In this document: piece after piece, positions 19,824-52,560 of the stretch
Position numbering within the stretch: position 1 is the stretch's first letter
How the letters are laid out: each line of letters begins with the position of its first letter
Assembly: GCA_965238135.1 (NCBI GenBank)
Contig: OZ250177.1
Span: 541,744-605,743, forward strand
Direction of reading: 5' to 3'
DNA: 64,000 nt
DNA from: Candidatus Multivorans sp.
GTDB lineage: Bacteria; Acidobacteriota; Thermoanaerobaculia; Multivoradales; Multivoraceae
Position numbers and translations under genes: made by a program
The notes under the pieces: generated by a model
Database searches by the model: none
What the model was told of the DNA's origin: nothing
The model's input: the letters and a program-made list of their open reading frames with translations, nothing else

Positions 19824-19826
19824 GAG

Positions 19827-28376: not shown

Positions 28377-28601
28377 GGTTCTGGGGCCGCTACGACCGAG
28401 GAGCCCGGGAGCCGCAGTGTGTGTGTGTCGAGCGACCCGGCGTTTCGGTTGTTCCGAGCGCGATCCTCTCGGTGCGAGAGGGGCTCGCATGGCTTCGCGG
28501 CTGTCCAGCGCAGGCGACGCTCGCCCTTCCGCCGCCGGGGGAGTTCCAGTCGGTGGAGCCGGGGGTTGCGGTCGATCGGAATGCGAAGTAGAGTTGCACC
28601 T

Positions 28602-29522: not shown

Positions 29523-29523
29523 A

Positions 29524-30018
29524 ATGGAGCGACAGAGGACAATCGCCGCGTCACCGGTTCGGAGCGCCGCCGAAGCGTGGGACGTTGTAACTACACTGAT
29601 CGCAGAGACGCTTGAGCGCAGCCCTGAGGTCCCGGATGGGAGCGTAGCCGAGGAGTTTGCGGCGCTGGAGGGGCTGGGCCCGGCTCTCATCGCGGCCGGG
29701 CATTTGGAATCGGACGGCCTGGTGCTCTGCGACGATGGCCTGCATGTGACGATTCGGGTCTTGACCGCGGATGCGGCACTCGCAGTCAAGGAGAATCTCA
29801 ATCCCGTGCCCGGTGGCGGGCGTGCTTCGGGTGCGTGGATCCTCTATCTACCTTCGCCCGGAGCACTCGAAACGAGCGTGGCCGGCGCGGCGAAGCGGTC
29901 TGCGCATCTATCTGTAGACGCACCGCCGAAGTCGGCGCCGTTGGCAAAGGGGAAGAAACGGGAGGCAGGTTCGGTCATTGATCTGGGCGCACTCCGCAAG
30001 GCGACATCGAAATGGTGA
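29524..30018 (+). CDS. Small protein of unknown function (164 aa), translationally coupled between TRIP13-like ATPase and SMODS; candidate HORMA-domain protein
   Basis: GGAGGG RBS overlapping the TRIP13 stop. No recognisable motifs; basic disordered C-terminal tail (PPKSAPLAKGKKREAGSVIDLGALRKATSKW). HORMA assignment is inferred from context only. Confidence 0.5.
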   Translation: MERQRTIAASPVRSAAEAWDVVTTLIAETLERSPEVPDGSVAEEFAALEGLGPALIAAGHLESDGLVLCDDGLHVTIRVLTADAALAVKENLNPVPGGGRASGAWILYLPSPGALETSVAGAAKRSAHLSVDAPPKSAPLAKGKKREAGSVIDLGALRKATSKW

Positions 30019-30518
30019 CATCGACCTCGGTCTCGACCTATACGCGCACTCATACGGCTACGCACTTGGCGGACGTCATTCTGGGCTCGATTGCCGACAT
30101 CTTGGGAACGCTTCGCATTGATCCCACGCGGCTGTTTGCGGATTGGGAGACGGATCAGGCGGCCATCTCGAACTGGATTGCGGAAGGCTCGCTCAAGTGC
30201 GTCGCACTCGAATGCCACCGCCCGGACGGAACGGTGAACCCGATCTTCGAGTTCCCGCTGTCGTACACGGGCACGGGGCCGGGGAATCGGAAGTTCACGG
30301 CTGATCGGGCCGCGCTGGCACGCTATCTGGCGAAGCTGCAGCTAGTGCCGGCTGGAACTACATATCGCCTCTTCTGCAGCTTCAATGGACCCCATTCGGT
30401 GCAGGCGGGATGGTCCCCTGGGACAAGGGCGTCCGTTGGGGGCCTGCGCTCGGTGAGCTTTGGGACCCTCGCTGCCGGACCGCACGCCGGCGCGGGAATG
30501 CGCTACTACCGAAAGTAG
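30012..30518 (+). CDS. Small protein of unknown function (168 aa), translationally coupled (ATGGTGA overlap); candidate HORMA-domain protein (Cap7-like size)
   Basis: Overlaps the previous ORF's stop by 7 nt. Gene-like codon usage. No sequence motif recognised. Confidence 0.5.
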   Translation: MVTSTSVSTYTRTHTATHLADVILGSIADILGTLRIDPTRLFADWETDQAAISNWIAEGSLKCVALECHRPDGTVNPIFEFPLSYTGTGPGNRKFTADRAALARYLAKLQLVPAGTTYRLFCSFNGPHSVQAGWSPGTRASVGGLRSVSFGTLAAGPHAGAGMRYYRK

Positions 30519-30526
30519 GTGAGAGG

Positions 30527-31384
30527 ATGAGCTACGTCGACGACGCGTTCGATAAGTTGAAGTCGAATCTCGAGATTACGAAGACCGAGAGCCACCAGGC
30601 GCAGATTCGGCACCAGTTGGTGCGCGAGCACATCGAGGCCTCGTGGGAGTTGGTGGAGCATTTTCTCACCGGCAGCTACAAGCGACACACCAAGACGAAG
30701 AAGCTGAAGGACGTCGACATATTCGTCGTCGTCGATCCAGAGGGGCCGCAGGCCGCATTGGCTGACGGTACGGGAACGGCGGCTGTGCTTGCGTTGCACG
30801 ACTTACTGGCCGAACGCTGGAACGATCTGGGCGCCGACGACAACGTGGTGACGATCCACTATGGCGACGAAGACGTCGCGTCGTACGAGGTCGCTCCGGT
30901 CTTCCCGCGAAGCGGTGGCGGCTATTCGATGCCCAACGGCGTGGCGTGGATGGACACCGACCCGCAGGAGCAAGCGGAGCTCGTGACGGTGAAGAACAAG
31001 GAGTGCGACGCGAAGTTCGTGCCCTTTGTGAAGATGGTCAAGGGAATCAACCGCGAGGCAGGAGACCCAATCGAGCCCGCGTTTCTGATGGAGGTGATGG
31101 CGCTGGACCTTGTGGTAGAGCCGTTTGGCCGGTACAGGGACGAGATCAGGTTCTACCTGGCTTCGGTCGCGGACCAGATTACCGACGACTGGCGGGATCC
31201 AGTCGGGCTTGGTCCGGACGTGAATGCCCGGATGGGGGCCCGCCGTCGGAAAGAGCTGTCGGAGATTGTGCGCGGGTGGCTGGGTGTCGCCGAGGAGGCG
31301 TTGCAGCTTGAATACGAAGGCAAAGAACGGGCGGCGGTAGAGGCGTGGCGCGAGCTGTTCGGCTGGCGCATGCCGAGGCCATGA
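30527..31384 (+). CDS. SMODS / CD-NTase-family nucleotidyltransferase (cGAS/DncV-like cyclic-oligonucleotide synthase)
   Basis: Hallmark pol-beta NTase active site GSYKRHTKTKKLKDVDIFVVVD (GS...[DE]h[DE]h) plus a downstream acidic triad residue in VTIHYGDEDVASYEVAPV. 285 aa. GGTGAGAGG RBS 8 nt after the preceding stop. Confidence 0.8.
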   Translation: MSYVDDAFDKLKSNLEITKTESHQAQIRHQLVREHIEASWELVEHFLTGSYKRHTKTKKLKDVDIFVVVDPEGPQAALADGTGTAAVLALHDLLAERWNDLGADDNVVTIHYGDEDVASYEVAPVFPRSGGGYSMPNGVAWMDTDPQEQAELVTVKNKECDAKFVPFVKMVKGINREAGDPIEPAFLMEVMALDLVVEPFGRYRDEIRFYLASVADQITDDWRDPVGLGPDVNARMGARRRKELSEIVRGWLGVAEEALQLEYEGKERAAVEAWRELFGWRMPRP

Positions 31385-31573: not shown

Positions 31574-33041
31574 TCACGGCGCCTCGCCCGCTACCGCCGC
31601 CTGTTCGTCGGCGAGCATGTTGCGGCGGTGGAGGACGTACGCCTTGATCAGCGCGACATCATCGCCGTCGAGGACCGGGGAGAAGTCGGGCATGCCGAGG
31701 TCGACAAGAGCGCCCTCGATCAGGGCGGCCTCGTAGGAGTCGAAGACGCGCTGCGACGACTCGCGCAGGTCGGGCGTGACGCCGCCGGAGACCGCGCCGT
31801 AGCCGTGGCAGACCAGGCAGTACTGGTTGAACAGCCGCCGCCCGGCGTCGATGTCCCTGGTCGAGGCGCCGTGCTCGACGCGGGTGACGCGCACCTCACG
31901 TCGCTCCTGCCGTTCGATCGGCTGGCCGGTGGCGCCCAGGGCATAAACGACGATGCGGCCCTCGCTTTCGACCGCCTGCCGGGCCGAGCGGGTGCCGACG
32001 GTGCCGAAGGCGCCGCCCCAGCCGGACATCACCGCGATGTACTGCGTGCCGCCGCTCTCGAAGGTGATCGGCGGCGCGTCCTCGGCCAGCATCTGACCCG
32101 AGAGGCCGGTGGCGTCGACGACTGCTTGAGGGATGTCCTCGGGTGCCGCGGGGCGCACGCCGAGGTTCCACTGGCCGGGGGTGTACTTGAAGTTCGGGTC
32201 CGGCACGTAGAAGTTCGCCATCTCCATCGCCGGGATGTAGACCAGCCCCGTTTGCGGGCTGAACGACATCGGATGCCAGTTGTGCCCGCCGAGTGGCCCG
32301 GGCGAGACGGCGACTGCCTGGTCGGTGTAGCGGGCGCCGGCCAGTTCGACCGGGCGGCCGGTGGCGAGGTCGACGTGACTGGCCCAGGTCACGGTGACGA
32401 ACTCCTCGGCCGAGATCAGCTCGCCGGTGCGGCGGTCGAGGACGTAGAAGAAGCCGTTCTTGGGCGCCTGCATCAGCACCTGGCGCACCCGGCCGTCAAT
32501 CGGCAGCTCGGCAAGCATGATCGGTTGGGTGGCGGTGTAGTCCCAGGTGTCGCCCGGCGTCGTCTGGTAGTGCCAGACGTGCTCGCCGGTGTCGGGGCGC
32601 AGCGCCACGATCGAGGACAGGAACAGGTTGTCGCCACCGCCGGGGCTGCGGATGTTCCGGTCCCACGGCGAGCCGTTGCCGACGCCGATGTAGAGCAGGT
32701 CGAGTTCGGGGTCGTAGACGATCGAGTCCCACACGGTGCCGCCGCCACCTGCGGTCCACCATTCGCCGGTCCAGGTCTCGGCGGCCATGCGCATCGCCTC
32801 GTTCTCGAAGCCGTCGGCCGGGTTGCCGGGCACGGTGTAGAAGCGCCACGCCAGCTCGCCGGTCTCGGCGTCGTAGGCGTCGACGTAGCCGCGCCCGCGG
32901 CACCGACCAGGGCCGCGTCGTCGACTCCGTAGGCGGCCTCCGCGCGACGGGCCGGCGGCTGGGAGAAGACGGAGGTTATACGACCAGAAACGCCGTGGCT
33001 GCCAAGCCGGCATGGGCGAGAAAGGTGCGCGATGGTCTCAT
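31574..33041 (-). pseudogene. PQQ-dependent quinohemoprotein alcohol dehydrogenase pseudogene (signal peptide joined to distal propeller + cytochrome c domain; internal deletion and at least two frameshifts)
   Basis: ATG at 33041 encodes MRPSRTFLAHAGLAATAFLVV then a stop. The frame then shifts to ...SQPPARRAEAAYGVDDAALVGAAGA, and again near 32887 to GYVDAYDAETGELAWRFYTVPG... through to a C-terminal CLVCH heme-binding cytochrome c domain. About 250 aa of the N-terminal propeller are absent relative to intact paralogs in this window. Confidence 0.7.
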
Positions 33042-33080: not shown

Positions 33081-35111
33081 CTACTCGCCGGGGTCGTCGC
33101 CCGCGGCGCTTGCGGGCAGCGCCAGGACGACGAGCTCGGGAGGCGTACCGCCGCCGCCGATGGCGAAGCGGCCGCCGCCGGTGGCGACGGCGAGGTACTG
33201 CCGGCCGCCGTGTTCGTAGCTGATGACGTTCGAGTTCGGTGTCTTCGGCAACTCGATGCCGCCGAGGTATTCGCCGGTCGCCTTGTCGTAGACGCTGATC
33301 TCGGCCGGTATGTCGCGCTGTTCGGCTTTCGGGTCGCCCGAGTGTTCCGGGTTCGCGGTGACGAACAGCAGCGTGGGCGTGACCAGGGGCGCCGCGGTGT
33401 GGTTGACCTGGCCGAGCCGGCCGAGTTCCAGGTGGGCGATGGCTGGATGGTTCACCGGCCCTACGCCGTGCGGCACCATCCACAGGTGCTCGCCGGTGTT
33501 CAGATCGATCGCCGTGATCCGCCCGTACGGCGGCTTCACCAGCGGCAGGCCCCGGGGTCCTTCGACCGTCTGGTACCAGCGATCCGGCACGAAGTTCAGG
33601 TCGGAGCGGTTCGGATCGGGCTTGGTCAGGGACACGCTGGCCGAACGGGTATGCGAGACGACGTAGAGGATCCCGGCTTCGGGATCGACCGCGGCGCCGG
33701 TCCAGTTCGCGCCGCCGCCGTCGGCCGGCAACTGGATCGTCGGCTTGCCCGACTTCCCGAAGCGTGGCGGCGTGTAGAGCGGTACCAGGTCGTAGTCGGC
33801 TGCGATCTCGAGGGCCTCGGCGCGGAGTTCGGGAGTCCAGTCGATCAGGTCGTCTTCGGTGATGCCCTGGCGATCGAAAGCGGCCGGCCGGGTCGGGAAC
33901 GGCTGGGTCGGCGCGGCGCGTTCGCCGGGCACGTCGCTGGGCGGCGCCTCCCGTTCCTCGATCTCCCACACCGGCTCGCCGTTCGTCCGATCGAAGACGA
34001 AGGCGAAGGCCTGCTTGGTGACCTGAGCCACGCCGAGCACCTGCTTGCCGTCCACCGTGGCCTCGAACAGGTTCGGGGCGGTCGGCGGGTCGTAGTCCCA
34101 CAGGCCGTGGTGGACGAACTGGTAGTGCCACTGGCGCTCCCCGGTCTCGCAGTCGACCGCCACGATGCTCTCGGCGTACAGGTTGTCGCCGAGGCGGTGG
34201 CCGCCGTACAAGTCGTTGGTCGGCGTGCCGATCGGCAGGTAGGCGACGCCCGCCTCCTCGTCTACCGCGATCATCGACCAGACGTTCGTGTTGCCGCTGT
34301 AGCGCCAGGAGTCGTCCTCCCAGGTTTCGACACCGAGTTCGTCGTCCTGGGGAATCGTGTGGAACACCCAGGCGAGCTCGCCGGTGGGGATGTCGTAGGC
34401 GCGCACGAAGCCGGGCGGTGCCTCCTTGTGGGTGGCGAAGTCGGCGACGATCGAGCCCACGATCACCGTGTTGCCGCAGATTGCGGGCGGCGAGCTGTGG
34501 GTCGTCAGGCGCTCCATCACCTCGCGGCCGAGGTGGGGGGTCATCTCGACCGCGCCGCCGTCGCCGAAGGCTGGGTCGGGGTCGCCGGTCGCGGCGTCGA
34601 GGGACACGAGCCGGCGGTCGTGGGTCGGAATGAGCACCCGTTCGCGTTCGCCGTCCGTCCAGTAGGCCACCCCGCGGTGCTGGAAGCCCAGGTTTGCCGG
34701 CCGGCCGGCGCGCCAGCTTTCGGGATCGTAGCTCCAGAGCGTCTCGCCGCTGTCCGCATCGATCGCGGCGACCTGGCTGAGCGATGTGGACACGAAGATC
34801 CGGCCCGCGACCTCGAGCGGAATCGCCTTGAACTGGCTGCGCCGTACGGTGCTCGGGACCTCCGTGTCGGCGGCGATCGACCGCCAGCGCCAGACGACCT
34901 CGACGTCCTGGAAGTTGTCGCGGTCGATCTCGTCGAGCGTCGAGTACTTGCTGTTGCCGGGATCGCCGCCGAAAGCCGGCCAGTCGCCGGAGGCGCCGGT
35001 CTGAGCCGGGAGGGGTGGGCTCGCCAGAGCGGCGGCGAGTGCCAGGGCCGCCGCAGCCAGGAGAGGAGTGGAGTGCGGGGTCAGGACAGCAGGCCGATCA
35101 GGCGGGCCCAT
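33081..35111 (-). CDS. PQQ-dependent dehydrogenase (quinoprotein, 8-bladed beta-propeller), secreted
   Basis: Signal-like N-terminus then W-rich propeller repeats (GELAWVFHTIPQDD..., GERQWHYQFVHHGLWDYD...). No cytochrome c domain. Start at 35111 overlaps the upstream membrane-protein gene by ~30 nt; start uncertain. Confidence 0.75.
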   Translation of the reverse strand: MGPPDRPAVLTPHSTPLLAAAALALAAALASPPLPAQTGASGDWPAFGGDPGNSKYSTLDEIDRDNFQDVEVVWRWRSIAADTEVPSTVRRSQFKAIPLEVAGRIFVSTSLSQVAAIDADSGETLWSYDPESWRAGRPANLGFQHRGVAYWTDGERERVLIPTHDRRLVSLDAATGDPDPAFGDGGAVEMTPHLGREVMERLTTHSSPPAICGNTVIVGSIVADFATHKEAPPGFVRAYDIPTGELAWVFHTIPQDDELGVETWEDDSWRYSGNTNVWSMIAVDEEAGVAYLPIGTPTNDLYGGHRLGDNLYAESIVAVDCETGERQWHYQFVHHGLWDYDPPTAPNLFEATVDGKQVLGVAQVTKQAFAFVFDRTNGEPVWEIEEREAPPSDVPGERAAPTQPFPTRPAAFDRQGITEDDLIDWTPELRAEALEIAADYDLVPLYTPPRFGKSGKPTIQLPADGGGANWTGAAVDPEAGILYVVSHTRSASVSLTKPDPNRSDLNFVPDRWYQTVEGPRGLPLVKPPYGRITAIDLNTGEHLWMVPHGVGPVNHPAIAHLELGRLGQVNHTAAPLVTPTLLFVTANPEHSGDPKAEQRDIPAEISVYDKATGEYLGGIELPKTPNSNVISYEHGGRQYLAVATGGGRFAIGGGGTPPELVVLALPASAAGDDPGE

Positions 35112-35554
35112 ACCGAGACGCTGGTCCAGATGCCGATCGACAGCGCACCGACCACCTTGGGCCAGTGTCCCAGCGTTCCTTCTTCGGCGAACGCGACGCG
35201 GCGTCGGATGGTGAAGTTGAAGAGCAGCCCGATGACGATGATCTGCATCTTCCACCAGAAGAACGGGCTGTAGTACTGCTTGAGCGCCGTGGACAGGACC
35301 TGCGGCGCGCCGGTGACGAACAGGGCCACGAAGCTCCAGATCATCCAGCGGTCGGCCTCGCGGGCGAGCCGGGCGGTCGATGTCTTGATCAGACCGCGAC
35401 CGAGCAGCCGCATGTCGACCAGCAGCACGGCACCGGCAAACGCCACCAGGGCGACGAGGTGCACGCACTGGATGATCGGCGATGCCCAGGTCTCCTCCAG
35501 CATCCAGGCGCTGAAGGACAGACCCTGCATCCACTCGAAGAAGGACTGCATCAC
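35081..35554 (-). CDS. Small integral membrane protein (4 TM), paralog of the next gene
   Basis: 157 aa, FEWMQGLSFSAWMLE... N-terminus; shares motifs with 35577-36107 (FEWxxxL...S...; W...L..M..G.N; M.Y.GL). Confidence 0.6.
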   Translation of the reverse strand: MMQSFFEWMQGLSFSAWMLEETWASPIIQCVHLVALVAFAGAVLLVDMRLLGRGLIKTSTARLAREADRWMIWSFVALFVTGAPQVLSTALKQYYSPFFWWKMQIIVIGLLFNFTIRRRVAFAEEGTLGHWPKVVGALSIGIWTSVSVWARLIGLLS

Positions 35555-35576
35555 TGATCGATCCTCCGTTGTCGGC

Positions 35577-36107
35577 TCACGCGCCGATGTTCAGGTTGTC
35601 CCACCAGTCGGGCATCAGGCCGGCGTAGGCCATCATGCGGCCGGTCACCACGACCGCCGCCCACAGCAGCAGGGAGACAACGCCGGCGACCCGGGCGTTG
35701 AACGGGATCTCCCGGCCCTGGTCCCAGGCCTGGACGGACTTGTAGGTCGCGTAGTGGAACCAGAACATGTTGATGCCGGCGACCACCATCAGCAGCATCT
35801 TGGCCCAGAAGTAGAAGTTGCCGTAGTAGCGCATCGGCTGGCTGTAGAGCAGCAAGCCGCCGGTGATCAGGTTGATCGCGTATCCGGTCAGCGCCCACGG
35901 GAAGAGACGGGTCGGGATGTTCGACACCGGCACCTTCTTGAGCGTCAGCCCGACCAGCCGCATGTCCCAGAAGGCGATCAGGCCGGCGAACAGGCACATG
36001 CTGACCACGTGGGTCGTCAGCAGTGTCGGGTACGCGTTCAGCGATTCCCGCAGCGCGACGCTGCTGGGAAGCGCATCGACCCACTCGAAGGCGCTACGGA
36101 TGAACAT
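35577..36107 (-). CDS. Small integral membrane protein (4 TM), tandem paralog
   Basis: 176 aa, MFIRSAFEWVDALPSSVALRESLNAYPTLLTTHVVSMCLFAGLIAFWDMRLVG...; similar topology and motifs to 35081-35554. Confidence 0.6.
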   Translation of the reverse strand: MFIRSAFEWVDALPSSVALRESLNAYPTLLTTHVVSMCLFAGLIAFWDMRLVGLTLKKVPVSNIPTRLFPWALTGYAINLITGGLLLYSQPMRYYGNFYFWAKMLLMVVAGINMFWFHYATYKSVQAWDQGREIPFNARVAGVVSLLLWAAVVVTGRMMAYAGLMPDWWDNLNIGA

Positions 36108-36153
36108 CGGAAGGTGACCCTGTTCGGCTCAGACCGGCAGGAGCCGGAACGGC

Positions 36154-36687
36154 CTACTTGCGGCAGCGGTCCTGGTACTTCCGGTAGATCGCGTGGCAGT
36201 CTTCGCAGGCGCCCGCGAGTTCGTTGGTCAGGTCGCTGACCTTCTCCTGATCCTCTTCGTGCGCCGCGGCGTAGATCTGCTTGGCGACGGAGGTCAACTG
36301 CTTGGCGTACTTCTGGAAGTCCTCGTTGCCGACCGGCGCGGGCTTGCCGTTCTCGCACTTGCGGTCGGCATTCATGATCAGCGGCTCGACCTCGGCCAGG
36401 GCGAGGGCTGCCTGCTGCGGCACCTGCCAGCCGGTGTAGATGCCGGAGAAGAGGGACGATGCGGAGCGGTCGTCTTCGCTGCCGGCCTCGGGCGGGGCGC
36501 CCGGGTCCGTGGTCTGGACGTCGAACAGGAAGTTCGAGTTCGGGAACAGGATGGCGCGCATCAGTTCGGCCAGGTTGCCGACCGGTTCCTCGTGCTCCGA
36601 GGCGGCGAGTGGCGTCGCGGCGATCGTCGTGCAGGCAGCGAGAAGCACTGCCGTGGCGAGGAGCGGCGCAAGTCTGGTCAAGCGCAT
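36154..36687 (-). CDS. Class II c-type cytochrome (cytochrome c'/c556-like), lipoprotein
   Basis: Lipobox LLAAC; single C-terminal heme-binding motif CEDCH in a ~150-aa helical protein. Confidence 0.7.
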   Translation of the reverse strand: MRLTRLAPLLATAVLLAACTTIAATPLAASEHEEPVGNLAELMRAILFPNSNFLFDVQTTDPGAPPEAGSEDDRSASSLFSGIYTGWQVPQQAALALAEVEPLIMNADRKCENGKPAPVGNEDFQKYAKQLTSVAKQIYAAAHEEDQEKVSDLTNELAGACEDCHAIYRKYQDRCRK

Positions 36688-40358: not shown

Positions 40359-42206
40359 CTAGTGCTTGGAAGCTGCGCTTCGTCGGCGTGTCCGTTTGAG
40401 CCCTTGGAGCAAGCGAAGTGTCTTCTGGACATCGGTCGGCACAACCTTCATGTTCTCGACGATTGCCTCTGGAGTCAGGTGCGACGGGAACTCCTTCGTC
40501 TGCAGCCAACCTCTCAAGCCGCTCAGAACCTTCTTCGCGTCGCCCCACCTTGGCAATTGCTCGTCGTCGAGTGGCACCTGCTTTCGGGCTTGCTCCATCG
40601 CTGTTGCGAGGGCTAAGCGACGGTCTTCTTGGTGGATTCGCTCGGCGACTCTCTCCCAGATTCGCTGCCGCTGATCGCCTAACAGGCGATCCCATTCACG
40701 CGCGAAGCGACCCCGCAGCCTTCTCCAGACGCCTTTCTTGTTGGCTGCGGCGGCCTGGGAGTCGAGCAGTCGCAGAACAGCATCGCGGTCGAGCAAGTAG
40801 TTCTCTAGCTCGTTCTTCTCCCAGAGCACGAGCCGGAAGTCGAGTTTGTAGGCTTCGCTCTTGGAGCGCTTGTTGCGATCAAGTAGGGCCCCCCGCCTCG
40901 CCCTGTCGGTTCGGTAGTCGCGATCACCGATAGCGACGAACTTCATCGGTGCAGGGCTGTCCAGCACCGGGCTGCTAGCGATGTCGCGGACCTGACGCGC
41001 CAAGTCGAGGACCCGGGCCTCAATCGGGCCTTGGTAGGTGTACAAGAACGTCAGGTCTCGCCAGATGGCCTGTTGTTTCTTGGTGCCCCAGTGCTTGCGT
41101 GCGAACGCCTCGATCAGCTTGCGGTCGCTCTTGTTCTCGACGAAGACCACCGCGCGATTCACGAGCAGGGGCACCAGTTCCATCTGGTCCATAGCGCCGA
41201 GATCACCTAGCAGTTGGAGTTGCTCGGGTTGTACCGACAATGGCACGGCTCGGCCGTCCATGCAGACCCGAACAGAGCCTGCCGGCGCCGAGTTCAGGAG
41301 TTGGGGCGAGTGGGTGGCGAGAACGAACTGCTCCTCTTCCTCGACTGCCAGACGCTGCAGGATGCCCATCAACTGCCCCTGAAGGCGCGCGTGGAGGTGA
41401 GCGTCCGGTTCATCCAGGAGGAACATCGCTGCCCCTGGCGCTAGGACGGAAGCCAGGATCTGGAGAGCTTGGTGGAATCCGGATCCGGCAGTGATCACGT
41501 CTCGCTTGCGTCGCAGTGCCTTGTCGCGATAGCTAGCTTTCAGGAAGCGGTCGATGTCAAGGTTGAAGTCGACCTCGATGCTGCTCTCGGGAAACAGCTC
41601 AGCCAATAGCGCCTGGAGTTTCTTCCACTGGTGCGGTTCGTCCTGCTGGAGATGCCAAAGCTGGTTGCGGACCATTTCGCCGTGCCGCTGTAGACGTAGG
41701 CGGTCCTGCCGTGCTGGCGGCGTCAGGTACTCCTCCTGCGGCAGGAAGCCGGCGAAGATGGGAATCAGTCGGATCTCGCGACGGTGGATAGCTTCTTGCC
41801 AGGCCCCCTTTGTGCTCGGCTGGATGCTGAAACGGTTGTAGCTGATGCGAATCTGAAACGCGATCTCAGCGCCGCTTGCGAACATAGCCTTGAGCGAAAT
41901 GGGTCTCGGTTTCGACTGGTGGGTGATCAGCCCGTCGGGCCAGAGATCGCCTGGATGAGCGGCCGGCAACGCGCCGAACTCGTCGAAACCAACGGTTCGG
42001 CTGGAGAGTGCGAGATCGGCGGAGTCTCGCCCGTTGCCGTTGAGTTTGCGAGTTGTCTCGATGCAGTACTGGAACAGCGTCAGGGCCTGGAGGATGGTCG
42101 ACTTGCCGCTGTTGTTGGCACCGACGAGCAACGTGATGTCCTCAAAGTCGACGCTCGTCGCGTCGCGGAAGCGCTTGAAGCCCTTGATCGTGAATCTGCG
42201 GAGCAT
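40359..42206 (-). CDS. OLD-family ATP-dependent endonuclease (AAA_21/ABC ATPase + Toprim), stand-alone (class 1 OLD / fused PARIS-like)
   Basis: Walker A LLVGANNSGKSTIL, Walker B MFLLDEPDAHLH, C-terminal Toprim-like segment VVFVENKSDRKLIEAF...FVAIGDRDYR. 615 aa. No adjacent UvrD-like helicase. Confidence 0.72.
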   Translation of the reverse strand: MLRRFTIKGFKRFRDATSVDFEDITLLVGANNSGKSTILQALTLFQYCIETTRKLNGNGRDSADLALSSRTVGFDEFGALPAAHPGDLWPDGLITHQSKPRPISLKAMFASGAEIAFQIRISYNRFSIQPSTKGAWQEAIHRREIRLIPIFAGFLPQEEYLTPPARQDRLRLQRHGEMVRNQLWHLQQDEPHQWKKLQALLAELFPESSIEVDFNLDIDRFLKASYRDKALRRKRDVITAGSGFHQALQILASVLAPGAAMFLLDEPDAHLHARLQGQLMGILQRLAVEEEEQFVLATHSPQLLNSAPAGSVRVCMDGRAVPLSVQPEQLQLLGDLGAMDQMELVPLLVNRAVVFVENKSDRKLIEAFARKHWGTKKQQAIWRDLTFLYTYQGPIEARVLDLARQVRDIASSPVLDSPAPMKFVAIGDRDYRTDRARRGALLDRNKRSKSEAYKLDFRLVLWEKNELENYLLDRDAVLRLLDSQAAAANKKGVWRRLRGRFAREWDRLLGDQRQRIWERVAERIHQEDRRLALATAMEQARKQVPLDDEQLPRWGDAKKVLSGLRGWLQTKEFPSHLTPEAIVENMKVVPTDVQKTLRLLQGLKRTRRRSAASKH

Positions 42207-42493
42207 CTTCTTTGTCTATTGGCGGTTGTCAGCGGGGCGCCCGGGTCAGTTGCTCGAGGCTCTGCGCTGACGACCGAGAGTTCCCCAGCGCAGAGCCAGA
42301 GCCGGTCACTGGCCGGTGCGTCTCTGGCGAGTGAATCCTACGGCAACTCGTAGCTTCATGGAGCCTCCGGAGGTCGGGCACGGCTCCGTTTCCGCTATCG
42401 TCGTCGCAGACGTATGGAAGCGGGCGACGGAGTTCTTCGCGTGCCATCGGAAGGCCGGCGGTTGAACCCGGCGTCGATACAGGAGCCAAGCTC

Positions 42494-44958: not shown

Positions 44959-45596
44959 GTGCCGCTCCGGTTCTCCGCGTCCACGTCGAAGGACATGATC
45001 ATCATGTCGCGCGTGCGCCCGGAGCGGTCGATCACCCAGTCCGTGAGCAGGGCCTCGGCCGAGAAGCCGAGCCGTTCGAAGAGCCGGCGGGCGCCGATCT
45101 GCTCGCGCGTCATCTGCGCCACGAGCTTGAGCAGGCCCAGGTCGTGCGCCGTGTCGAACACGCGCTGGGTCAGGACGCGGCCTAGACCGGAACGTCGGTG
45201 GCCTTCCGCGATGATCACGCGGATCTCGCCTAGGTGGCTCATCCACTGCAGGTCCCTCAGATTCAGGCTTCCATAGCCCACCAGCTCGTCCTCGTAGTAG
45301 GCAAGGGTCGTGAAACGGCTGCCGGAACTGGCGTCGCGGATCCAGCCCTCGACCACGTCCGGATCGGTGAGGTCGGAGCGCAGGAACTGCAGATCGATCT
45401 CGGGCAGGGCGCGGGCGAGGCTCACGATGTCGTCACGGTCTTCGGGCCGCAGGCGGCGCAACGCGTAGACGCGGTCGCCGCATTGGACCCGCTCGCCGAC
45501 GTCGTTGTTTTCGCTGCGCTGAGTCGAACCGTCGGCGCCGGGATCGGTTCCCGGCAGCAGGACAGAGGCAGTCAGGGCACTGCGGAGGTCGGACAT
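44955..45596 (-). CDS. GNAT-family N-acetyltransferase
   Basis: Acetyl-CoA binding motif HRRSGLGRVL... and GNAT fold motifs (LVGYGSL, RLFERLGF). Confidence 0.8.
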   Translation of the reverse strand: MSDLRSALTASVLLPGTDPGADGSTQRSENNDVGERVQCGDRVYALRRLRPEDRDDIVSLARALPEIDLQFLRSDLTDPDVVEGWIRDASSGSRFTTLAYYEDELVGYGSLNLRDLQWMSHLGEIRVIIAEGHRRSGLGRVLTQRVFDTAHDLGLLKLVAQMTREQIGARRLFERLGFSAEALLTDWVIDRSGRTRDMMIMSFDVDAENRSGT

Positions 45597-45751
45597 GCGC
45601 GAAGCGAACGCGTTGACGGCAGGGCCTTTCGAAGAGGCGCCCAGTGGGCCAACCAGCCAACGCTAGCACCATGCGCCGCTCCGCACCACACGCGCGTTGC
45701 CGCATCCCGGTCGGGTATCGTCGCGCGAACCAAACCGAAGGAGAAAGCGAG

Positions 45752-46831
45752 ATGGCTCCGATACCGAAGGGCGGCACGGTCGCGGTCACGGGCAGCGCCG
45801 GTTTCGTCGGCGGCTGGGCGGTCCGCCTGCTGCTGGACAAGGGCTACCGGGTGCGCGCCTGTGTGCGGGACGCGAACGACCCGGAGAAGACGACCTTTCT
45901 GCGCGAGATGCCGGGGTACGCCTCGGGCCGGCTGACCATCCACTCCGCGAACCTGGACGAAGCGGGCTGCTTCGACGACATCTTCGCCGGTTGCCACGGC
46001 GTCGCACACATCGCGCACGTCAGCGACTACAACGACTTCGACTACGTCAAGAACGTGTGCGACCACATCGTCGCGAGCATCGAGAAGTCGGGATCGGTGA
46101 CGCGCGTCGTCGTCACCTCGAGCATCGCCGCGGTGATCATGGAGGCCGACATCTACGAGTTCGTCCGGCGGCCCGTCCTGTACGAGGACCGCTATCCGGA
46201 CGAGCAGAACCCGAAGCGCACGCCGGAGCGCGGCCACGGATACTCGATGAGCAAGGTGTACGCGCAGCGAGCGTTCACGGACGCGGCGGAGAAGAGCGGC
46301 CGCTGGGACGCGATCACCTGTTGCCCGGGCGACAACGTCGGCCCCATCCTGTCGGCGCACCAGAAGGACAAGGGGCCCTGGCAGCACAACATCGAGTTGA
46401 TGCTGAGCGGCTCGTGCACGCAGACCCAGGCCTACCGGCCTTGGATGACGGTCGATGTCCGCGACGACGCGGAGTGCCACATCCGGCTGCTCGAGAGTGT
46501 CGACGTACACAACGGCGAACGCTTCATCGCCTGGTCGACGGACGCCGTGCCGGTGGAGGAGATCAACGCGGGCATCGATCGCCTGCTGCCGGAGATCCGC
46601 CACGCCACGCCGGAGGTGGCGGACAACCATCCCGAGCACGTGCAGAAACGGGAGGAGGAGCTGCGCGGGATCTGGGCCGGCTGCGAACTGCGCAACGACC
46701 GGATGCGGGCGGCCACGGGCATCGCCTTCCGGCCCTTCGACGAATCGCTGCGCGACTGCGTGGAGTCGCTGCTCGCGGTGGCCGGGGTGGAACCGAAGCG
46801 ACGGCCGGAGACGGAGGGCGGTGGGGAGTAG
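45752..46831 (+). CDS. NAD(P)-dependent epimerase/dehydratase-family oxidoreductase (extended SDR, cinnamoyl-CoA/dihydroflavonol reductase-like)
   Basis: AAGGAGAAAG RBS. Rossmann motif VTGSAGFVGGWAVRLLLDKGYRV; catalytic YxxxK (YSMSKVYAQRA). Confidence 0.8.
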   Translation: MAPIPKGGTVAVTGSAGFVGGWAVRLLLDKGYRVRACVRDANDPEKTTFLREMPGYASGRLTIHSANLDEAGCFDDIFAGCHGVAHIAHVSDYNDFDYVKNVCDHIVASIEKSGSVTRVVVTSSIAAVIMEADIYEFVRRPVLYEDRYPDEQNPKRTPERGHGYSMSKVYAQRAFTDAAEKSGRWDAITCCPGDNVGPILSAHQKDKGPWQHNIELMLSGSCTQTQAYRPWMTVDVRDDAECHIRLLESVDVHNGERFIAWSTDAVPVEEINAGIDRLLPEIRHATPEVADNHPEHVQKREEELRGIWAGCELRNDRMRAATGIAFRPFDESLRDCVESLLAVAGVEPKRRPETEGGGE

Positions 46832-46834
46832 CAG

Positions 46835-47637
46835 TGGCTGGCCGCAGCCAAGCCCGCTTTGCTGGCGTAGCGGTCGCGCTGTTGCTTTTCCTGCCGGCCG
46901 CAGCCATCGGGCAAACCGCGGAGGGACCGGAGAACCCGTACACCAGCAGCGTCGACGCCCGGATGGGAGCACGGCAGTACGGGTTGAGATGCGTCAGTTG
47001 CCACGGGCTGCTCGGCACCGGGGGAGAGGAGGGCGACGGCCCGGACCTCACGACCGGGCGATTCCGGCACGCGACGACGGACGCCGGGCTCTACCGGGTC
47101 ATCCGGAATGGCGTCGAGGGCACCTCGATGCGGGGCTTGCGGCGCGCCAAGGACCAGGTGATCTGGCAGTTGGTCACCTACCTTGGTTCGCTCTCGGATG
47201 CCGTCGATCTTGCCTCCCTTCCCGGGTCGGTGGAGGCCGGCAGGGAAGCGTTCGAGCGTTTCGACTGCGGCCGCTGCCACATGGTTCACGGCCGCGGCGG
47301 CCGTCTCGGTCCCGATCTGTCGAGGGTCGGCGAGCGGCGCAACCCCACAGAGTTGGTTGAGGACCTGACGGAACCGAATGCCGAGGTCGCGCCGCGCTGG
47401 TGGACGCTGCGGGTCACGCGCGCCGACGGCGCCGTGATCGAGGGCCTGAGAATGGGCGAGGACACCTTCAACCTGCGGATCATGGACGGTGACGACGAGC
47501 TCCGATCCTTCTCGAAGGCGGCGGTTGGCAAGGTCGAGCGGATAGAGGAATCGTCGATGCCGGTGGAGCCGCTTTCGGACGAAGAGCGCGACGACCTGGT
47601 CGCCTATCTGTCCTCGCTTCGGAGGAGCGAATCGTGA
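46835..47637 (+). CDS. Diheme c-type cytochrome (likely electron acceptor for the downstream PQQ dehydrogenase)
   Basis: GTG start 3 nt after the SDR stop. Signal peptide FAGVAVALLLFLPAAAIGQ. Two CxxCH motifs (CVSCH, CGRCH). Confidence 0.75.
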
Positions 47638-49271
47638 GGTGGCTCATCGCGGCGCCGGCCATCCTGCTGCTGGCCTCCGCGCCGGTCCTCCTGGCCCAGG
47701 AAGGGGTGGGTGAGGGAGGACCGGTGCTGTCGCCGGTGACCTGGGATCGGCTGTTGAACTCGGACGACGAGCCGCACAACTGGCTGATGTACCACGGCGC
47801 CTTGCATGGGCAGCGTTTCAGCCGCCTCGACCAGATCGACCGCGAGAACGTCGGTCGGCTCGAACTGAAGTGGGCCCACCAGATCCGGCAGCTCGACCGG
47901 AACGAGACGACGCCCCTGGTGGTCGACGGCGTGATGTTCATCACCGAGTCGCCCAGCAACGTGACCGCCGTCGATGCGGCGACGGGGCGCCCCTACTGGC
48001 GCTACGAACACCCGGTGCCGGATGACATCCGGGTCTGCTGCGGTCGCAACAACCGGGGTGTCGCGATCCTGGGCGAGACGCTCTACATGAGCACGAACGA
48101 CGCCCACCTGGTGGCGATCGACGCGCGCTCCGGCTCCCTGCTGTGGGAAACGGAGGTCGAAGAGCACACGAAGGGCTACAGCAAGACCTCGGCGCCGCTC
48201 GTCGTCGGCGACACGGTCGTTACCGGCATCGCCGGTGGCGAGTACGGCATCCGCGGCTTCATCGACGGCTACGACGCCGCGACCGGCGAACGTAGGTGGC
48301 GTACCTACACGGTCCCGGGCCCTGGCGAGCCGCACAACGACACCTGGGCGGGTGACTCCTGGCGTACGGGCGGCGCGCCGACTTGGCTCACCGGCGTCTA
48401 CGACCTGGATCTCGACCTCATCTACTGGGGCACAGGCAACCCGGCGCCGGACTGGAACGGCGACCTGCGGCTCGGCGACAATCTGTACTCGTCGTCGGTG
48501 CTGGCGCTCGACGGGAAGACCGGGAAGATCGTCTGGCACTTTCAGTTCACGCCCCACGACGTCTGGGACTGGGACGCGATCCAGGTGCCGGTGCTGGCTG
48601 AGGTTGAAGTCTCCGGCGAGCCGATGAAGGCGATGCTGTGGGCCAACCGGAACGCCTTCTACTACCTGCTGAACCGGCAGAACGGCAAGTTCGTGCTCGG
48701 GGAGGCGTTCGCCATGCAGAACTGGGCCGACGGACTCGACGAGGAAGGGCGGCCGCTGCTGCGCGAGAACGTGTTTCCGACCGAGGAGGGCACCCTCATC
48801 GCGCCGATGGCCGGCGGCGCCACGAACTGGTGGTCGCCGGCCTACAGTCCGCAAACGGGGCTGCTCTACGTGAACGCCTTCGACGGCGAGGCCATCTACT
48901 ACCAGCGTGACGACGAGTACGTGGAGGGCAGCAACTTCCTCGGCGGCGGCATGCGAATGGCAAAACCGACCGAGCACTACCAGAGCGCCATCCGGGCGGT
49001 CGAGGCTGTGACCGGCGAGGTGCGCTGGGAGTTCCCGATCACGCCGAGAACCCGCAGCGGCGTCCTGGCCACGGCCGGCGGCCTGGTCTGGAGCGCCAGC
49101 GTCGACGGCTACTTCTTCGCCCTGGACGAGGAGACCGGGGAGCCGCTGTGGCGGATCTCGCTCGGCGCCGCGCCGCACGCCTCGCCGATGACCTACGCGG
49201 TCGGCGGCGAGCAGCGGGTCGTGGTGGCGATGGGCAACGTCGTCTTCGTGTTCGGGCTCGCGGACGAGTAG
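47634..49271 (+). CDS. PQQ-dependent alcohol/methanol dehydrogenase family quinoprotein (type I, XoxF/PedH/ExaA-like)
   Basis: GTGA overlap with the cytochrome stop. Signal peptide. Vicinal disulfide CC (DIRVCCGRNNRG). Propeller W-motifs. Active-site region TPHDVWDWDAIQ with D-x-D. Confidence 0.85.
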   Translation: MRWLIAAPAILLLASAPVLLAQEGVGEGGPVLSPVTWDRLLNSDDEPHNWLMYHGALHGQRFSRLDQIDRENVGRLELKWAHQIRQLDRNETTPLVVDGVMFITESPSNVTAVDAATGRPYWRYEHPVPDDIRVCCGRNNRGVAILGETLYMSTNDAHLVAIDARSGSLLWETEVEEHTKGYSKTSAPLVVGDTVVTGIAGGEYGIRGFIDGYDAATGERRWRTYTVPGPGEPHNDTWAGDSWRTGGAPTWLTGVYDLDLDLIYWGTGNPAPDWNGDLRLGDNLYSSSVLALDGKTGKIVWHFQFTPHDVWDWDAIQVPVLAEVEVSGEPMKAMLWANRNAFYYLLNRQNGKFVLGEAFAMQNWADGLDEEGRPLLRENVFPTEEGTLIAPMAGGATNWWSPAYSPQTGLLYVNAFDGEAIYYQRDDEYVEGSNFLGGGMRMAKPTEHYQSAIRAVEAVTGEVRWEFPITPRTRSGVLATAGGLVWSASVDGYFFALDEETGEPLWRISLGAAPHASPMTYAVGGEQRVVVAMGNVVFVFGLADE

Positions 49272-49353
49272 CACGGCGACCCTGCTCATCGGCGACGCGC
49301 TGGACGCGGCCGACGGCGTTGTCGACGGGTCGGCCGGCTGTCCCACCGTCTCG

Positions 49354-49746
49354 GTGACGAACGGTTTGCCCGACCAGGACGCGCTCGCCCGCGTGTTCGC
49401 CGATCCGAACTGCTTCAGCTTCCAGGAGATGTTCCCGGGCGGCTTCCAGCCCGTGTTCGGCGGCGAACGAACCGACGCTTCCCTGGTCGGCGGCGTGCGC
49501 GGGTACACCGCCTCGGGGACGATCTGGGACGTGAGCGTCAGCGCCCATCTGGTCGACCTGGAAGCCGCGGCCACGCTCGACGCCTCGACCCGGCTCGTGA
49601 TCGGAGGCCGCAATGCGCTGGACGAAGCCGCGGACCGCAATCCGAATCCGACTGTGATCGGCAACCTCTACAGCACGCGTGCTCCGTTCGACATCAACGG
49701 CGGCTTCTACTACGCCCGGTTGCAGTACCGCTGGGGCGGGGGCTAG
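49354..49746 (+). CDS. Hypothetical protein (possible gene remnant), no signal peptide
   Basis: 130-aa ORF with strongly gene-like GC3. The frame is open upstream into the PQQ-ADH 3' end with no better start. Ends ...FYYARLQYRWGGG. Confidence 0.3.
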   Translation: MTNGLPDQDALARVFADPNCFSFQEMFPGGFQPVFGGERTDASLVGGVRGYTASGTIWDVSVSAHLVDLEAAATLDASTRLVIGGRNALDEAADRNPNPTVIGNLYSTRAPFDINGGFYYARLQYRWGGG

Positions 49747-49832
49747 CAACCAGCGGTTGTCGCTCCGACCCTGGGAACGCGGGCGTCTCGCCCGCATCCG
49801 GCGTGAAGCGCTGGCTCGGTTGGCGCTAGCTG

Positions 49833-50840
49833 CTACAAGTCAGCGCCTTCAGGCCGGGGTCCGCGTTCGTTTGCGGCGCAGAGTTCCAGGAACTCCGCTT
49901 CGCTCCGGCACCTGAGCGCGGCGCGAATCAACTCGGCCACCGGTACCTCCCCGAGTTCCAGGAGCCGGACCTTCAGGGCGGGCGTGGTCGGGATGCCGCG
50001 CTCCCTGAGGACTGCCGTCACCGTCTCGTAGCCTGTCTCGGATCGTATCTCGGCCCGGCCCTCGTCGCGGTGGCGGCGAAGCCATCGATCGTCGTCCGGA
50101 CCGGTGCCTTCCGCGGCGCCAAGGGCTCTCCCGACGCGATGCAGTGCGGCCTCCGTCGAGGCCGACATCGTGTGCTCGTTCAGCGCTCGGTGGATCTCCT
50201 TCGCGGTCCAACTGGGGAAGGCGCGGCTGGTTCGCGCGGTGCGGAAGCGGCCTCCTTCGAGAACATGGATCATAAGTCCCGAGACACGAGACTTCGGCCG
50301 GCTCGGCGACGGCGCGTCGGGCACGTCGACCCAGACCTCGGGGAAGCCACACGCTTCGTACAGCGGCAGCTTGCGTACCCTGACATCGGTCGAGTAGTCG
50401 ACCTCCAGGATCACGTCCGGCAGAGCATCGCCGTCCACGTCAACCTTCGGGGTCAGTTCATCGGCTGGCGGTGGGTGCAGGTAGAGGATCTGGTCGGCCT
50501 GCATCAGGACATGAGGTCTACCGCCAGCATCGAACCGTACGAGGTCTGTCGTCCCGTACGCCTCGATCGGCGATCCGCGTTCCGCAGCCAGTCGTTCCGA
50601 CAGCTTGGCGAGCCGGTGTGACGGGCCTTCGTGGAACCGCGTGGTCGGTTCGCCGACGACCATCGCCGTTTCGGTGCGCGCCTCCCAGTACTCGAGGCGG
50701 CCCTCGTAGTCCTCGATGTCTTCGAGTGGAATGTGAACCGGCCGGCAACCGGGGAAGTCGGCCGGATCGAGCGGCGCCGCTTCCGGGTCGCGCTCTTCCT
50801 CCGACGGCGACAGCGTCGCCGTGTGCGCGGGCTCAGCCAT
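49833..50840 (-). CDS. Uma2-family (DUF820) PD-(D/E)xK endonuclease-like protein with C-terminal extension
   Basis: Core DVILEVDYSTDVRVRKLPLYEACGFPEVWVVD (D...E.K region) typical of Uma2/DUF820. Start at 50840 (alternative 50870). Confidence 0.65.
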   Translation of the reverse strand: MAEPAHTATLSPSEEERDPEAAPLDPADFPGCRPVHIPLEDIEDYEGRLEYWEARTETAMVVGEPTTRFHEGPSHRLAKLSERLAAERGSPIEAYGTTDLVRFDAGGRPHVLMQADQILYLHPPPADELTPKVDVDGDALPDVILEVDYSTDVRVRKLPLYEACGFPEVWVDVPDAPSPSRPKSRVSGLMIHVLEGGRFRTARTSRAFPSWTAKEIHRALNEHTMSASTEAALHRVGRALGAAEGTGPDDDRWLRRHRDEGRAEIRSETGYETVTAVLRERGIPTTPALKVRLLELGEVPVAELIRAALRCRSEAEFLELCAANERGPRPEGADL

Positions 50841-50937
50841 GGCGGTGATCCTATCGGGCCCGAGGACCATGGCTGAACCACTACACCTCCATCTTCGCCT
50901 GTCCGTGACGGGAGAGCTGCTGGGATCCTGCTTGGCC

Positions 50938-51600
50938 CTATGCTGCGATTCTCGGCTCCTCCGCCGAGAACGCCTTGTCGGCTGACTCAAAGCGCGTATG
51001 GAGCTCATCGAGACGGTGGGTGAAGTCCATGGTGCCCGTCGTCTTACGGTCCGTCCAGTACTTCCCCGTGAGAGTGGTTGGTCGAAGCCGCGGCCCATGC
51101 GTCCCGACGACGATGGCTCCATGATGCATCTCGCTGATCCGCTCGTTACGCAGATGAATGTTGGGCTCGTTGGCGTAGACACCGATCACTTGGAAGCCCT
51201 CTCCGTTGGGTGACGGTTGCACATGGCTGGCGATGAAGGACGACTCCGACTCAGGTGTCATGAGGTGCATCTGAAGAGTCGACAGCGTCTGCTTCACCCC
51301 CATGTAGCAGAGGATCGTTGGGATTGTCTCGCCCGTGTCGGGATCAATGTAGCTGGACTGAAGTTCGACTCGCCAAGTGCCTCGTAGATCCGGTCTGTTG
51401 ACAAGCCAGCCTTGCAGAAAGGACTGCCGCCAAGCGTAGCGCTCGAAGAGAAAGCCAAGCGAGACCAAAACTCCCACGACGCTGGAGAAGGGCGCGGCGT
51501 GATCCCAAGAAACAGGGGTGCCGCGAGCCACCAACACGGTGGACCATACGATCGCGGAGATTCCGACAAAAACGGTGATGTGGAGGCGCTCAAGCCTCAC
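50938..51600 (-). CDS. N-terminal 2-TM + C-terminal beta-rich domain protein; candidate membrane effector of the adjacent SMODS gene (Cap15/S-2TMbeta or SLATT-like)
   Basis: GTG at 51600, 3 nt after the SMODS stop (translational coupling); alternative ATG at 51666 overlaps SMODS. TM helices ITVFVGISAIVWSTVLVA and FSSVVGVLVSLGFLF, then a ~150-aa region rich in alternating hydrophobic residues. Lies in a lower-GC islet. Confidence 0.55.
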   Translation of the reverse strand: MRLERLHITVFVGISAIVWSTVLVARGTPVSWDHAAPFSSVVGVLVSLGFLFERYAWRQSFLQGWLVNRPDLRGTWRVELQSSYIDPDTGETIPTILCYMGVKQTLSTLQMHLMTPESESSFIASHVQPSPNGEGFQVIGVYANEPNIHLRNERISEMHHGAIVVGTHGPRLRPTTLTGKYWTDRKTTGTMDFTHRLDELHTRFESADKAFSAEEPRIAA

Positions 51601-51602
51601 GA

Positions 51603-52258
51603 CTAGCGTGCTCCCAGGTAGGCCCACGCGGCATTGATGAAGGCGCGTGCCTGGACCGGTGTCCACGGTTGAGACTGTGCAAAGAGGAGCTTAACTTTGT
51701 CGACCTCACGCCACGTCTGCCAACTCGATCCGCTGTCGATCTGGGTCCCGAGATACCCCAACACGGCTCCGAGTCGGGCATACCAGCCGTAGCGATCGAA
51801 ACAGGTGTCGGGAGCGTTCCAGGTCAAGCACTCGAGGAGGTATCCTGGGATCGACTGAGCGGCAGGATGGCCGGCGTCGTCCAGTTCGCTGCGGAGATTC
51901 TTCAGGATGCGCACCAAACCACGGTAGCGCCGATGTGTGCGATCGTTCTTGTCGCGTCCGTTCTCATAGTGCTCCTTTGGCCACGAAGCGAAGAGTGCCT
52001 CCGGGTACTGTCCAACGCCGAGAAGGCGTCCGTGTAGAGCACGCCGACGTCTACATCACTATCGGCCCGGACGTTTACACGGTTGCGATAGGAACCCTGA
52101 ACGAAGACACGGACAGAGTGCGAGCGCAGCTTCGGACCAAGTACAGCGTGGCGGTCTATCGCGTTCCTGATGATCCCAACAGCGTTGTCGCAGCGAGTCT
52201 GCTCAGTCGAGCCTGGCGACTGAGCAGACTGCGTGAAGGTAGTTTCCCAGTCCGGCAT
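51603..52258 (-). pseudogene. SMODS/CD-NTase nucleotidyltransferase with an apparent +/-1 frameshift near 51990
   Basis: N-terminal frame encodes ...VRVFVQGSYRNRVNVRADSDVDVGVLYTDAFSALDS (GS...DxDh NTase motif) then runs into non-protein-like sequence and a stop. A second frame continues ...PEALFASWPKEHYENGRDKNDRTHRRYRGLVRILKNLRSELDD...AWAYLGAR* to 51603. Either a genuine pseudogene or an assembly/sequencing indel. Confidence 0.65.
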
Positions 52259-52560
52259 TCTTCGGGGCCTCTATAGATGCACTGGCAAGGTATCGTCGGT
52301 CCGGCTAGCGTGATCCGTACGTCCGAGAGAATCCTCTGGAGGTGACCTGCGTTGGTCATAGCCCGGTGGGCGCAAGGAGTATGGTCGCCGCTGCACGACA
52401 TCGAGCCGGCGCTCGGCGCTGGAGACTATGGTCGCTGCTGAACGTGGTCAAGCGAGTTGGCCCACCGCCGTGGCGATCCGACTTTCGTGTCTCGTCCGCA
52501 TGGATGTCGTTGAAGAGAGGTCCCGGTTCGCCGGACGGCAGTTGGTCTGACTGGCCGCGT

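Follow-up and report, generated by a model that had tools for sequence, protein, structure and literature searches.

Lanthanide-dependent alcohol dehydrogenases (ADHs) that use pyrroloquinoline quinone (PQQ) are told from their calcium-dependent relatives in sequence surveys by a simple rule, the motif D-x-D as against D-x-A/S/T (PMC11996626). Enzymes of the lanthanide type are reported to make up 61% of marine PQQ dehydrogenases, and some Acidobacteria have up to 70 per genome (PMC11996626). Here we describe a locus in a 64-kb stretch of DNA (the whole stretch analysed, hereafter the window) from Candidatus Multivorans (Acidobacteriota, Thermoanaerobaculia), a marine acidobacterium, where a PQQ-dependent ADH predicted to be of this type is encoded beside a dihaem cytochrome c and a short-chain dehydrogenase/reductase (SDR). 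The sample names suggest an association with sponges; our search for literature on Candidatus Multivorans found nothing relevant.

The closest known counterpart is PedH of Pseudomonas putida KT2440 (structures 6ZCV and 6ZCW), a lanthanide-dependent type I PQQ ethanol dehydrogenase. Where the calcium enzyme PedE has Ser295, PedH has an aspartate, and it is active with rare earths only (PMC5487730). PedH is a soluble periplasmic enzyme that passes electrons to a separate c-type cytochrome, as the enzyme studied here would be, and the two have in common an eight-bladed propeller, a pair of adjacent cysteines, Glu, Asn and Asp as metal ligands, and an additional Asp two residues beyond the catalytic one. 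They differ in that the query enzyme is ∼35% identical to PedH over the Foldseek alignment and ∼30–50 residues shorter (545 aa with the signal peptide), reads D-W-D-A where PedH reads D-F-D-G, has as its partner a 267-aa dihaem protein with a TIGR02603 domain whereas that of PedH is the monohaem c550 PedF, and lacks the ped-cluster context of an aldehyde dehydrogenase and the PedS2/R2 regulator.

Three further systems invite comparison. XoxF methanol dehydrogenases (4MAE, 6DAM, 6OC5) have in common with our locus the D-x-D motif, PQQ, a place in the periplasm and a cytochrome partner of their own (XoxG in the case of XoxF), but are less similar to the query than PedH is, and our locus is without XoxJ, a cytochrome of the cL/XoxG type or a context of one-carbon (C1) assimilation. 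Type II quinohaemoprotein ADHs (1KV9, 1YIQ, 1KB0) resemble it in the propeller and in having a haem c acceptor close to the PQQ domain; they are however calcium-dependent (D-F/Y-T) with a single haem domain attached C-terminally, whereas the query cytochrome has two haems and a separate upstream gene, and is N-terminal in related fusions. Finally, the predicted lanthanide-PQQ dehydrogenases of marine and soil Acidobacteria (Voutsinos et al. 2025, PMC11996626; 2026 preprint, 10.64898/2026.07.10.737718) match ours in phylum, in the D-x-D criterion, in the many PQQ dehydrogenase paralogues per genome (the window alone has three PQQ dehydrogenase genes), and in their association with TonB-dependent transporters and small exported proteins; these sets are catalogue-level predictions.

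The locus consists of three tightly packed genes on the same strand, with high third-position G+C, followed by the remains of a fourth:

45752–46831, + strand: extended SDR, 359 aa, cytoplasmic; start ATG at 45752 after AGGAGA, stop TAG at 46829–46831
46834–47637, + strand: periplasmic dihaem cytochrome c, 267 aa; start GTG at 46834 after GGGGAG, stop TGA at 47635–47637
47634–49271, + strand: periplasmic PQQ-dependent ADH of the methanol/ethanol family, 545 aa; start GTG at 47634 after GGAGGAG, stop TAG at 49269–49271
49276–49746, + strand: degraded remnant of a TonB-dependent receptor gene, recognised by blastn against relatives L002, L008, L010 and L011 and by tblastn and translation comparison

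An independent gene call on contig L001, whose only difference from the window is an indel of 5 nt, recovers these three genes. Signal-peptide-like N termini are present in the cytochrome and the ADH, not in the SDR. The initial annotation of this stretch had proposed three translationally coupled genes, with a 3-nt gap and then a GTGA overlap; the overlap of cytochrome and ADH is exact, and the gap between SDR and cytochrome is corrected to 2 nt (CA, 46832–46833). Scanning 45400–49900 for promoters yielded no promoter-like site, and the terminator-like matches in that interval are weak, lie inside genes and number 4 against 1.7 expected by chance.

The dehydrogenase and its metal site

The ADH scores 543.2 bits against the NCBIfam model TIGR03075 (PQQ-dependent dehydrogenase, methanol/ethanol family; cut-off 480.05), covering profile positions 4–527 of 530, and Pfam finds the PQQ beta-propeller with an E-value of 7.5e-91. 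Its best PDB sequence match is PedH (6zcv/6zcw; E 2e-109, 370 bits), behind which come the type II quinohaemoprotein ADHs (292–337 bits) and then XoxF, ExaA and MxaF (222–280 bits; XoxF 246–280). An AlphaFold2 model built from a 40-sequence alignment (predicted TM-score 0.76, mean per-residue confidence score pLDDT 69) served the fold search only. It shows the eight-bladed beta-propeller, with weak loops; Foldseek again ranks PedH first (TM-score 0.71), and the top 30 PDB matches are without exception structures of PQQ ADHs, methanol dehydrogenases or sorbose dehydrogenases (TM-score 0.64–0.73). Because PedH heads both the sequence and the fold ranking, above XoxF, the enzyme is by its sequence an ethanol-type type I quinoprotein and not a XoxF methanol dehydrogenase.

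A XoxF-type methanol dehydrogenase in a methylotrophy operon would account for the D-x-D motif and the partner cytochrome, and XoxF structures do align with the scores just given, but PedH and the type II ADHs score above any XoxF or MxaF. The surroundings speak against it too: no gene for a XoxJ-like or other periplasmic binding protein lies nearby, the cytochrome fails the MoxG cL model (see below), and the genes alongside are those of an SDR and of a decayed TonB receptor, with none for C1 metabolism. We consider this alternative very unlikely. Assignment to the type II quinohaemoprotein ADHs was ruled out, the protein having no CxxCH motif and ending with the propeller, with no C-terminal cytochrome domain.

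More than 8000 proteins match the ADH at E <1e-30, the best 120 being 67–99% identical to it and ∼545 aa long. A scan of one genome per GTDB species returned 504 loci, 80 of which were kept; the loci in hand number 87. All 80 are from Acidobacteriota; the match at 99% comes from the chromosome of a Candidatus Multivorans sp. (Thermoanaerobaculia). Forty homologues of 67–86% identity show no variation at C135, C136, E203, N269, H308, D309, D312, W313 and D314, the motifs TPHDxxDWDA and CCGRNNRG are present in every one of the 87 loci, and both Asp residues are kept in 132 of the 149 representatives of 50%-identity clusters, which are 35–60% identical to the query. In view of the TIGR03075 score, these invariant residues and the universal presence of the motifs, the features of the ADH are not a product of chance.

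The vicinal cysteines and the PHDVWDWD strand that the initial annotation had read in the ADH are there, at residues 135–136 and 307–314. In gap-free stretches of the HMMER alignment C135-C136, E203, N269, D312 and D314 correspond to C131-C132, E199, N281, D323 and D325 of PedH (PedH positions were counted from the printed alignment coordinates), so that D312-W-D314 falls over D323-F-D325. The motif window of 74 residues is free of gaps against five structures; the residues at the metal site are:

PedH, lanthanide enzyme: D-F-D
1kv9, calcium enzyme: D-F-T
1kb0, calcium enzyme: D-Y-T
8gy2, calcium enzyme: D-Y-T
query ADH, predicted lanthanide enzyme: D-W-D

The annotation had taken the second Asp for a signature of Ln3+ coordination, a claim that would fall if this residue lay away from the metal site or if the residue matching XoxF D301 were not Asp. 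In the PedH alignment it coincides with D325 of PedH, and for this reason the lanthanide interpretation stands as a prediction; the match to XoxF D301 is made through PedH as intermediary only. We predict with good confidence, from the alignment, that the ADH is lanthanide-dependent, with D314 as the marker.

The competing view is of a calcium-dependent or metal-promiscuous PQQ ADH in which the second Asp is specific to the clade and implies no dependence on rare earths. Our literature search found no assayed member of the clade, and the residue following its motif is Ala, compared with Gly in PedH; but the Asp is invariant in the 87 loci, and every calcium enzyme aligned has Thr in its place. 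Calcium stands at ∼1e-2 M in seawater against ∼1e-11 M for lanthanides (PMC11996626), and the ADH shows no visible decay beside a TonB receptor gene that has been lost, both of which favour calcium. The characterised D-x-D enzymes in the cited literature (XoxF clades, and PQQ-ADH type 2b including PedH) nevertheless need lanthanides, and we regard a calcium enzyme as unlikely.

The dihaem cytochrome

The protein encoded immediately upstream comprises a class I cytochrome c domain, with CVSCH at residue 53, and then a TIGR02603-type haem domain, with CGRCH at residue 145; both haem motifs had been noted before and are confirmed. The TIGR02603 match covers residues 132–261 at 91.2 bits (cut-off 68.15), and the Pfam matches are Cytochrome_CBB3 and Cytochrom_C. 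Two established partner types were tried and rejected. Cytochrome c550 of the PedF/ExaB type (TIGR04494), the usual partner of type I ADHs, is a monohaem protein of ∼130–150 aa, and our protein, with 267 aa and two CxxCH motifs, scores 32.1 bits against a cut-off of 122; for the MoxG cL type the score is 19.7 bits against a cut-off of 147.8.

A homologue of the cytochrome gene lies directly upstream of the ADH gene in 50 of the 87 loci, spread over Thermoanaerobaculia and Vicinamibacterales. Gene calls are available for five relative loci (L002, L003, L005, L006 and L007), Vicinamibacterales with ADHs only ∼70% identical to ours among them, and the 4-nt overlap of cytochrome and ADH genes is found in all five.

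The two proteins also occur as one polypeptide. An N-terminal haem extension with one or two CxxCH motifs is present in 38 of 150 ADH representatives, and in 26 of these 38 it can be aligned to the cytochrome of the window. In eight fusion proteins, P0283, P0281 and six more, the extension carries both haems and matches that cytochrome over practically its whole length (E-value 1e-38 for P0283). From the N terminus onwards, P0283 and P0281 consist of a class I cytochrome c domain, a TIGR02603 domain and a TIGR03075 domain; fusion protein P0282 too has the TIGR02603 domain. Because of these natural fusions to homologous ADH domains and the conserved adjacency of the genes, the dihaem cytochrome very probably accepts the electrons of the ADH, which upholds its earlier description as the cognate cytochrome. 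The enzyme class and the cytochrome partner are the parts of our reading in which we have high confidence. We know of no study of a dihaem TIGR02603-type cytochrome as the partner of a quinoprotein ADH.

The vicinal Cys-Cys pair is replaced (by CI, QN, AA, AS, AT or AL) in seven of the eight dihaem fusions, namely P0281, P0286, P0296, P0308, P0328, P0350 and P0358. With the cytochrome tethered, an enzyme of this kind may be able to do without the disulfide; the window enzyme, whose cytochrome is a separate protein, keeps the pair.

Neighbouring genes in the window

The SDR matches the Pfam family Epimerase (PF01370) with an E-value of 1.6e-13 (51 bits against a threshold of 20.9). It has the two motifs of an extended SDR: the N-terminal Rossmann motif (TGxxGxxG) is represented by GSAGFVG, residue 14, and the catalytic YxxxK by YSMSK, residue 164. 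Its best PDB relatives, at E-values of 1e-27 to 1e-20, are dihydroflavonol 4-reductase (DFR), cinnamoyl-CoA reductase (CCR) and ketoreductases, which points to an NAD(P)H-dependent carbonyl reductase of the DFR/CCR/aldehyde-reductase branch.

The 2-nt spacing argues for co-transcription of the SDR with the cytochrome and ADH in the window, and to that extent its earlier placement in the operon holds; as a conserved neighbour, though, it is confined to Candidatus Multivorans and one other acidobacterial lineage. The SDR gene stands upstream of the cytochrome-ADH pair in 18 of 18 Multivorans-type loci, and in L023, another acidobacterial metagenome-assembled genome, the order is cytochrome, ADH, SDR, with the SDR at 77% identity. 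A sizeable possibility, if somewhat short of even, is that the SDR is a mere neighbour and that the functional unit is the cytochrome-ADH pair, plus the receptor where it survives. No PQQ enzyme is encoded near the SDR homologues (72–78% identity) of Pseudomonadales, Burkholderiaceae and another genome, which stand alone or with acyl-CoA genes, and this tells against a part for the SDR in the pathway; the Vicinamibacterales have, in the position upstream of cytochrome-ADH, not an SDR but a second PQQ protein, of 660 aa and glucose-dehydrogenase-like; and the spacing from SDR to cytochrome appears to widen to ∼50–300 nt in distant Multivorans-type loci, most clearly in L002 with ∼270 nt between gene calls. 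Against this are the 2-nt gap in the window, which holds no terminator (the weak terminator-like matches at 46863–46885 lie within the cytochrome gene), and the association itself, complete in the Multivorans-type loci and found reordered in L023.

A general link between this SDR and PQQ enzymes was rejected on the three contexts in other phyla that have no PQQ enzyme. Also rejected was a tie between the SDR and the divergent upstream acetyltransferase of the GNAT family, hinted at by the context of L088; the two GNAT proteins are unrelated. In acetic acid bacteria, periplasmic quinoprotein oxidation is paired with cytoplasmic NADPH reductases, which offers a model for the SDR. By this analogy it might process the product of the ADH, a suggestion that we make with low confidence and that is the weakest in our account.

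In relatives two genes come after that of the ADH, one for an exported protein of 149 aa and one for a TonB-dependent receptor of 887 aa, and 12 of the 18 Multivorans-type loci have an essentially complete receptor (823–887 aa matched) after the ADH. The window keeps ∼470 bp of the receptor gene, as two pieces joined in frame: 49276–49545 corresponds to receptor residues ∼351–440, and 49547–49742 to the last ∼65 residues, with the native stop codon. The N-terminal plug and ∼370 central codons are deleted. Against PDB sequences the receptor of relatives matches only the plug domains of PirA, FepA, CirA and BtuB, with no match to PqqU/YncD, and against NCBIfam its matches are generic only. The 149-aa exported protein (L002, 9679–10128, with equivalents in L012–L022) has no family match, its gene overlaps the start of the receptor gene, and it has been lost from the window. 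Small exported proteins have been described beside putative lanthanide receptors (Voutsinos et al., 2026 preprint, 10.64898/2026.07.10.737718), and the similar layout of the 149-aa protein and its receptor may be a lead in that direction.

Between the receptor remnant and conserved genes for efflux of the resistance-nodulation-division type lies a 2.8-kb type I island (49747–52560) of the cyclic-oligonucleotide-based antiphage signalling system (CBASS), which L011-like relatives do not have:

49833–50840, − strand: Uma2-like protein
50938–51600, − strand: Cap15/2TM effector
51603–52258, − strand: cyclase

The cyclase gene is split into two open reading frames by a 5-nt insertion, CGCCG (52016–52020), relative to the otherwise identical L001. 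A second, type III CBASS (26818–31384) is found directly beside a truncated PQQ gene, and both CBASS islands thus adjoin degraded genes:

26818–27828: S_4TM effector
28365–29522: TRIP13
30012–30518: HORMA
30410–31384: cyclase

The truncated gene (31574–33013, − strand) is the remnant of a calcium-type (D-Y-T) quinohaemoprotein ADH; it retains a C-terminal cytochrome c domain (CLVCH), while ∼180 positions at the start of the profile are missing, as is some of the C-terminal propeller. The segment that follows (33081–36687, − strand) encodes a glucose-dehydrogenase-like PQQ protein of ∼645 aa with the motif W-D-Y-D, 45% identical to the PQQ protein that precedes the cytochrome in Vicinamibacterales, and then two DUF6644 membrane proteins and a cytochrome c′-like lipoprotein (CEDCH); it may be a second quinoprotein electron-transfer module. 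Elsewhere in the window, a gene for a leucine-rich-repeat/fibronectin III surface protein (2120–8051) is apparently split by a DDE transposase (5089–6486, − strand), with leucine-rich-repeat reading frames on either side at 2120–5083 and 6486–8051. The window is dense in defence genes, which in addition to CBASS include:

17436–19823: hsdR, type I restriction-modification
19824–21278: hsdM, type I restriction-modification
21263–23044: hsdS, type I restriction-modification
22987–24722: M78 peptidase with DUF4411
40359–42215, − strand: AAA_15/AAA_21 ATPase

The proposed pathway and what it implies

We propose that the locus serves the oxidation of an alcohol in the periplasm. The ADH would be exported by its Sec signal peptide. 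Its cofactors would be PQQ and a trivalent lanthanide, with E203, N269, D312 and the additional D314 as the binding residues. With D312 as the base it would oxidise an alcohol to a carbonyl compound; the C135-C136 disulfide would then carry the two electrons from PQQH2 to the exported dihaem cytochrome c, which would pass them to the respiratory chain. The cytoplasmic SDR would most likely use NAD(P)H to reduce, or otherwise process, the carbonyl compound so formed or one related to it. In relatives the operon extends to the small exported protein and the TonB receptor, possibly for uptake of cofactor or metal; here the receptor has been destroyed. We put the probability of this overall mechanism at roughly 0.7.

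Several observations weigh against it. In 37 of the 87 loci, all of the same clade, no cytochrome gene adjoins the ADH. Our literature search found no characterised member of the 545-aa D-W-D-A clade, so that its metal, its cofactor and its substrate are predicted ones. To judge by attempts to engineer calcium enzymes, the extra Asp may be necessary, not sufficient. The model has pLDDT <50 at residues 135–140, 201–206, 269–285 and 309–316, the active-site loops, and the geometry of the metal site cannot be read from it. The 64-kb window contains no genes for PQQ biosynthesis, lanmodulin or lanthanide uptake, and the adjacent TonB receptor is wrecked. The runner-up NCBIfam model is TIGR04528, ‘acido-empty-quinoprotein group A’, a group defined in acidobacterial genomes without PQQ synthesis.

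The last two points would fit an ‘empty’ quinoprotein, that is, a propeller that makes no use of PQQ or stands idle in a PQQ-less organism, in some non-redox role. The TIGR04528 match is strong (499.2 bits) but remains below that model's cut-off of 650, whereas the cut-off of TIGR03075 is passed, and all metal and catalytic residues and the Cys-Cys pair are invariant. Acidobacteria encoding PqqU lack PQQ biosynthesis, but environmental PQQ can be scavenged (PMC12124388), and coupling and fusion to a cytochrome c make sense only for a redox enzyme. We judge an empty propeller very unlikely indeed and keep to a functional, cytochrome-linked alcohol dehydrogenase.

The D-x-D rule has been published before, as has the fact that such enzymes abound in Acidobacteria and in the ocean, and this locus alone changes nothing that is known of them. 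What it adds is a predicted rare-earth enzyme, clean and complete as an example, from a marine genus of uncultured acidobacteria. Modestly new are its dihaem TIGR02603-type partner, the fusion forms and the decayed receptor. The fusion proteins make the pairing of cytochrome and ADH directly testable. More speculatively, and with the odds rather against it, the D-W-D-A enzymes and the two-domain cytochrome may constitute a distinct electron-transfer module for lanthanide ADHs, widespread in marine Acidobacteriota in coupled or fused form; Candidatus Multivorans would ancestrally have had its own exported protein and TonB receptor for metal or PQQ, an uptake arm lost here through deletions beside the CBASS insertion. 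If this were so, the enzyme in the present genome must now rely on another route of supply.

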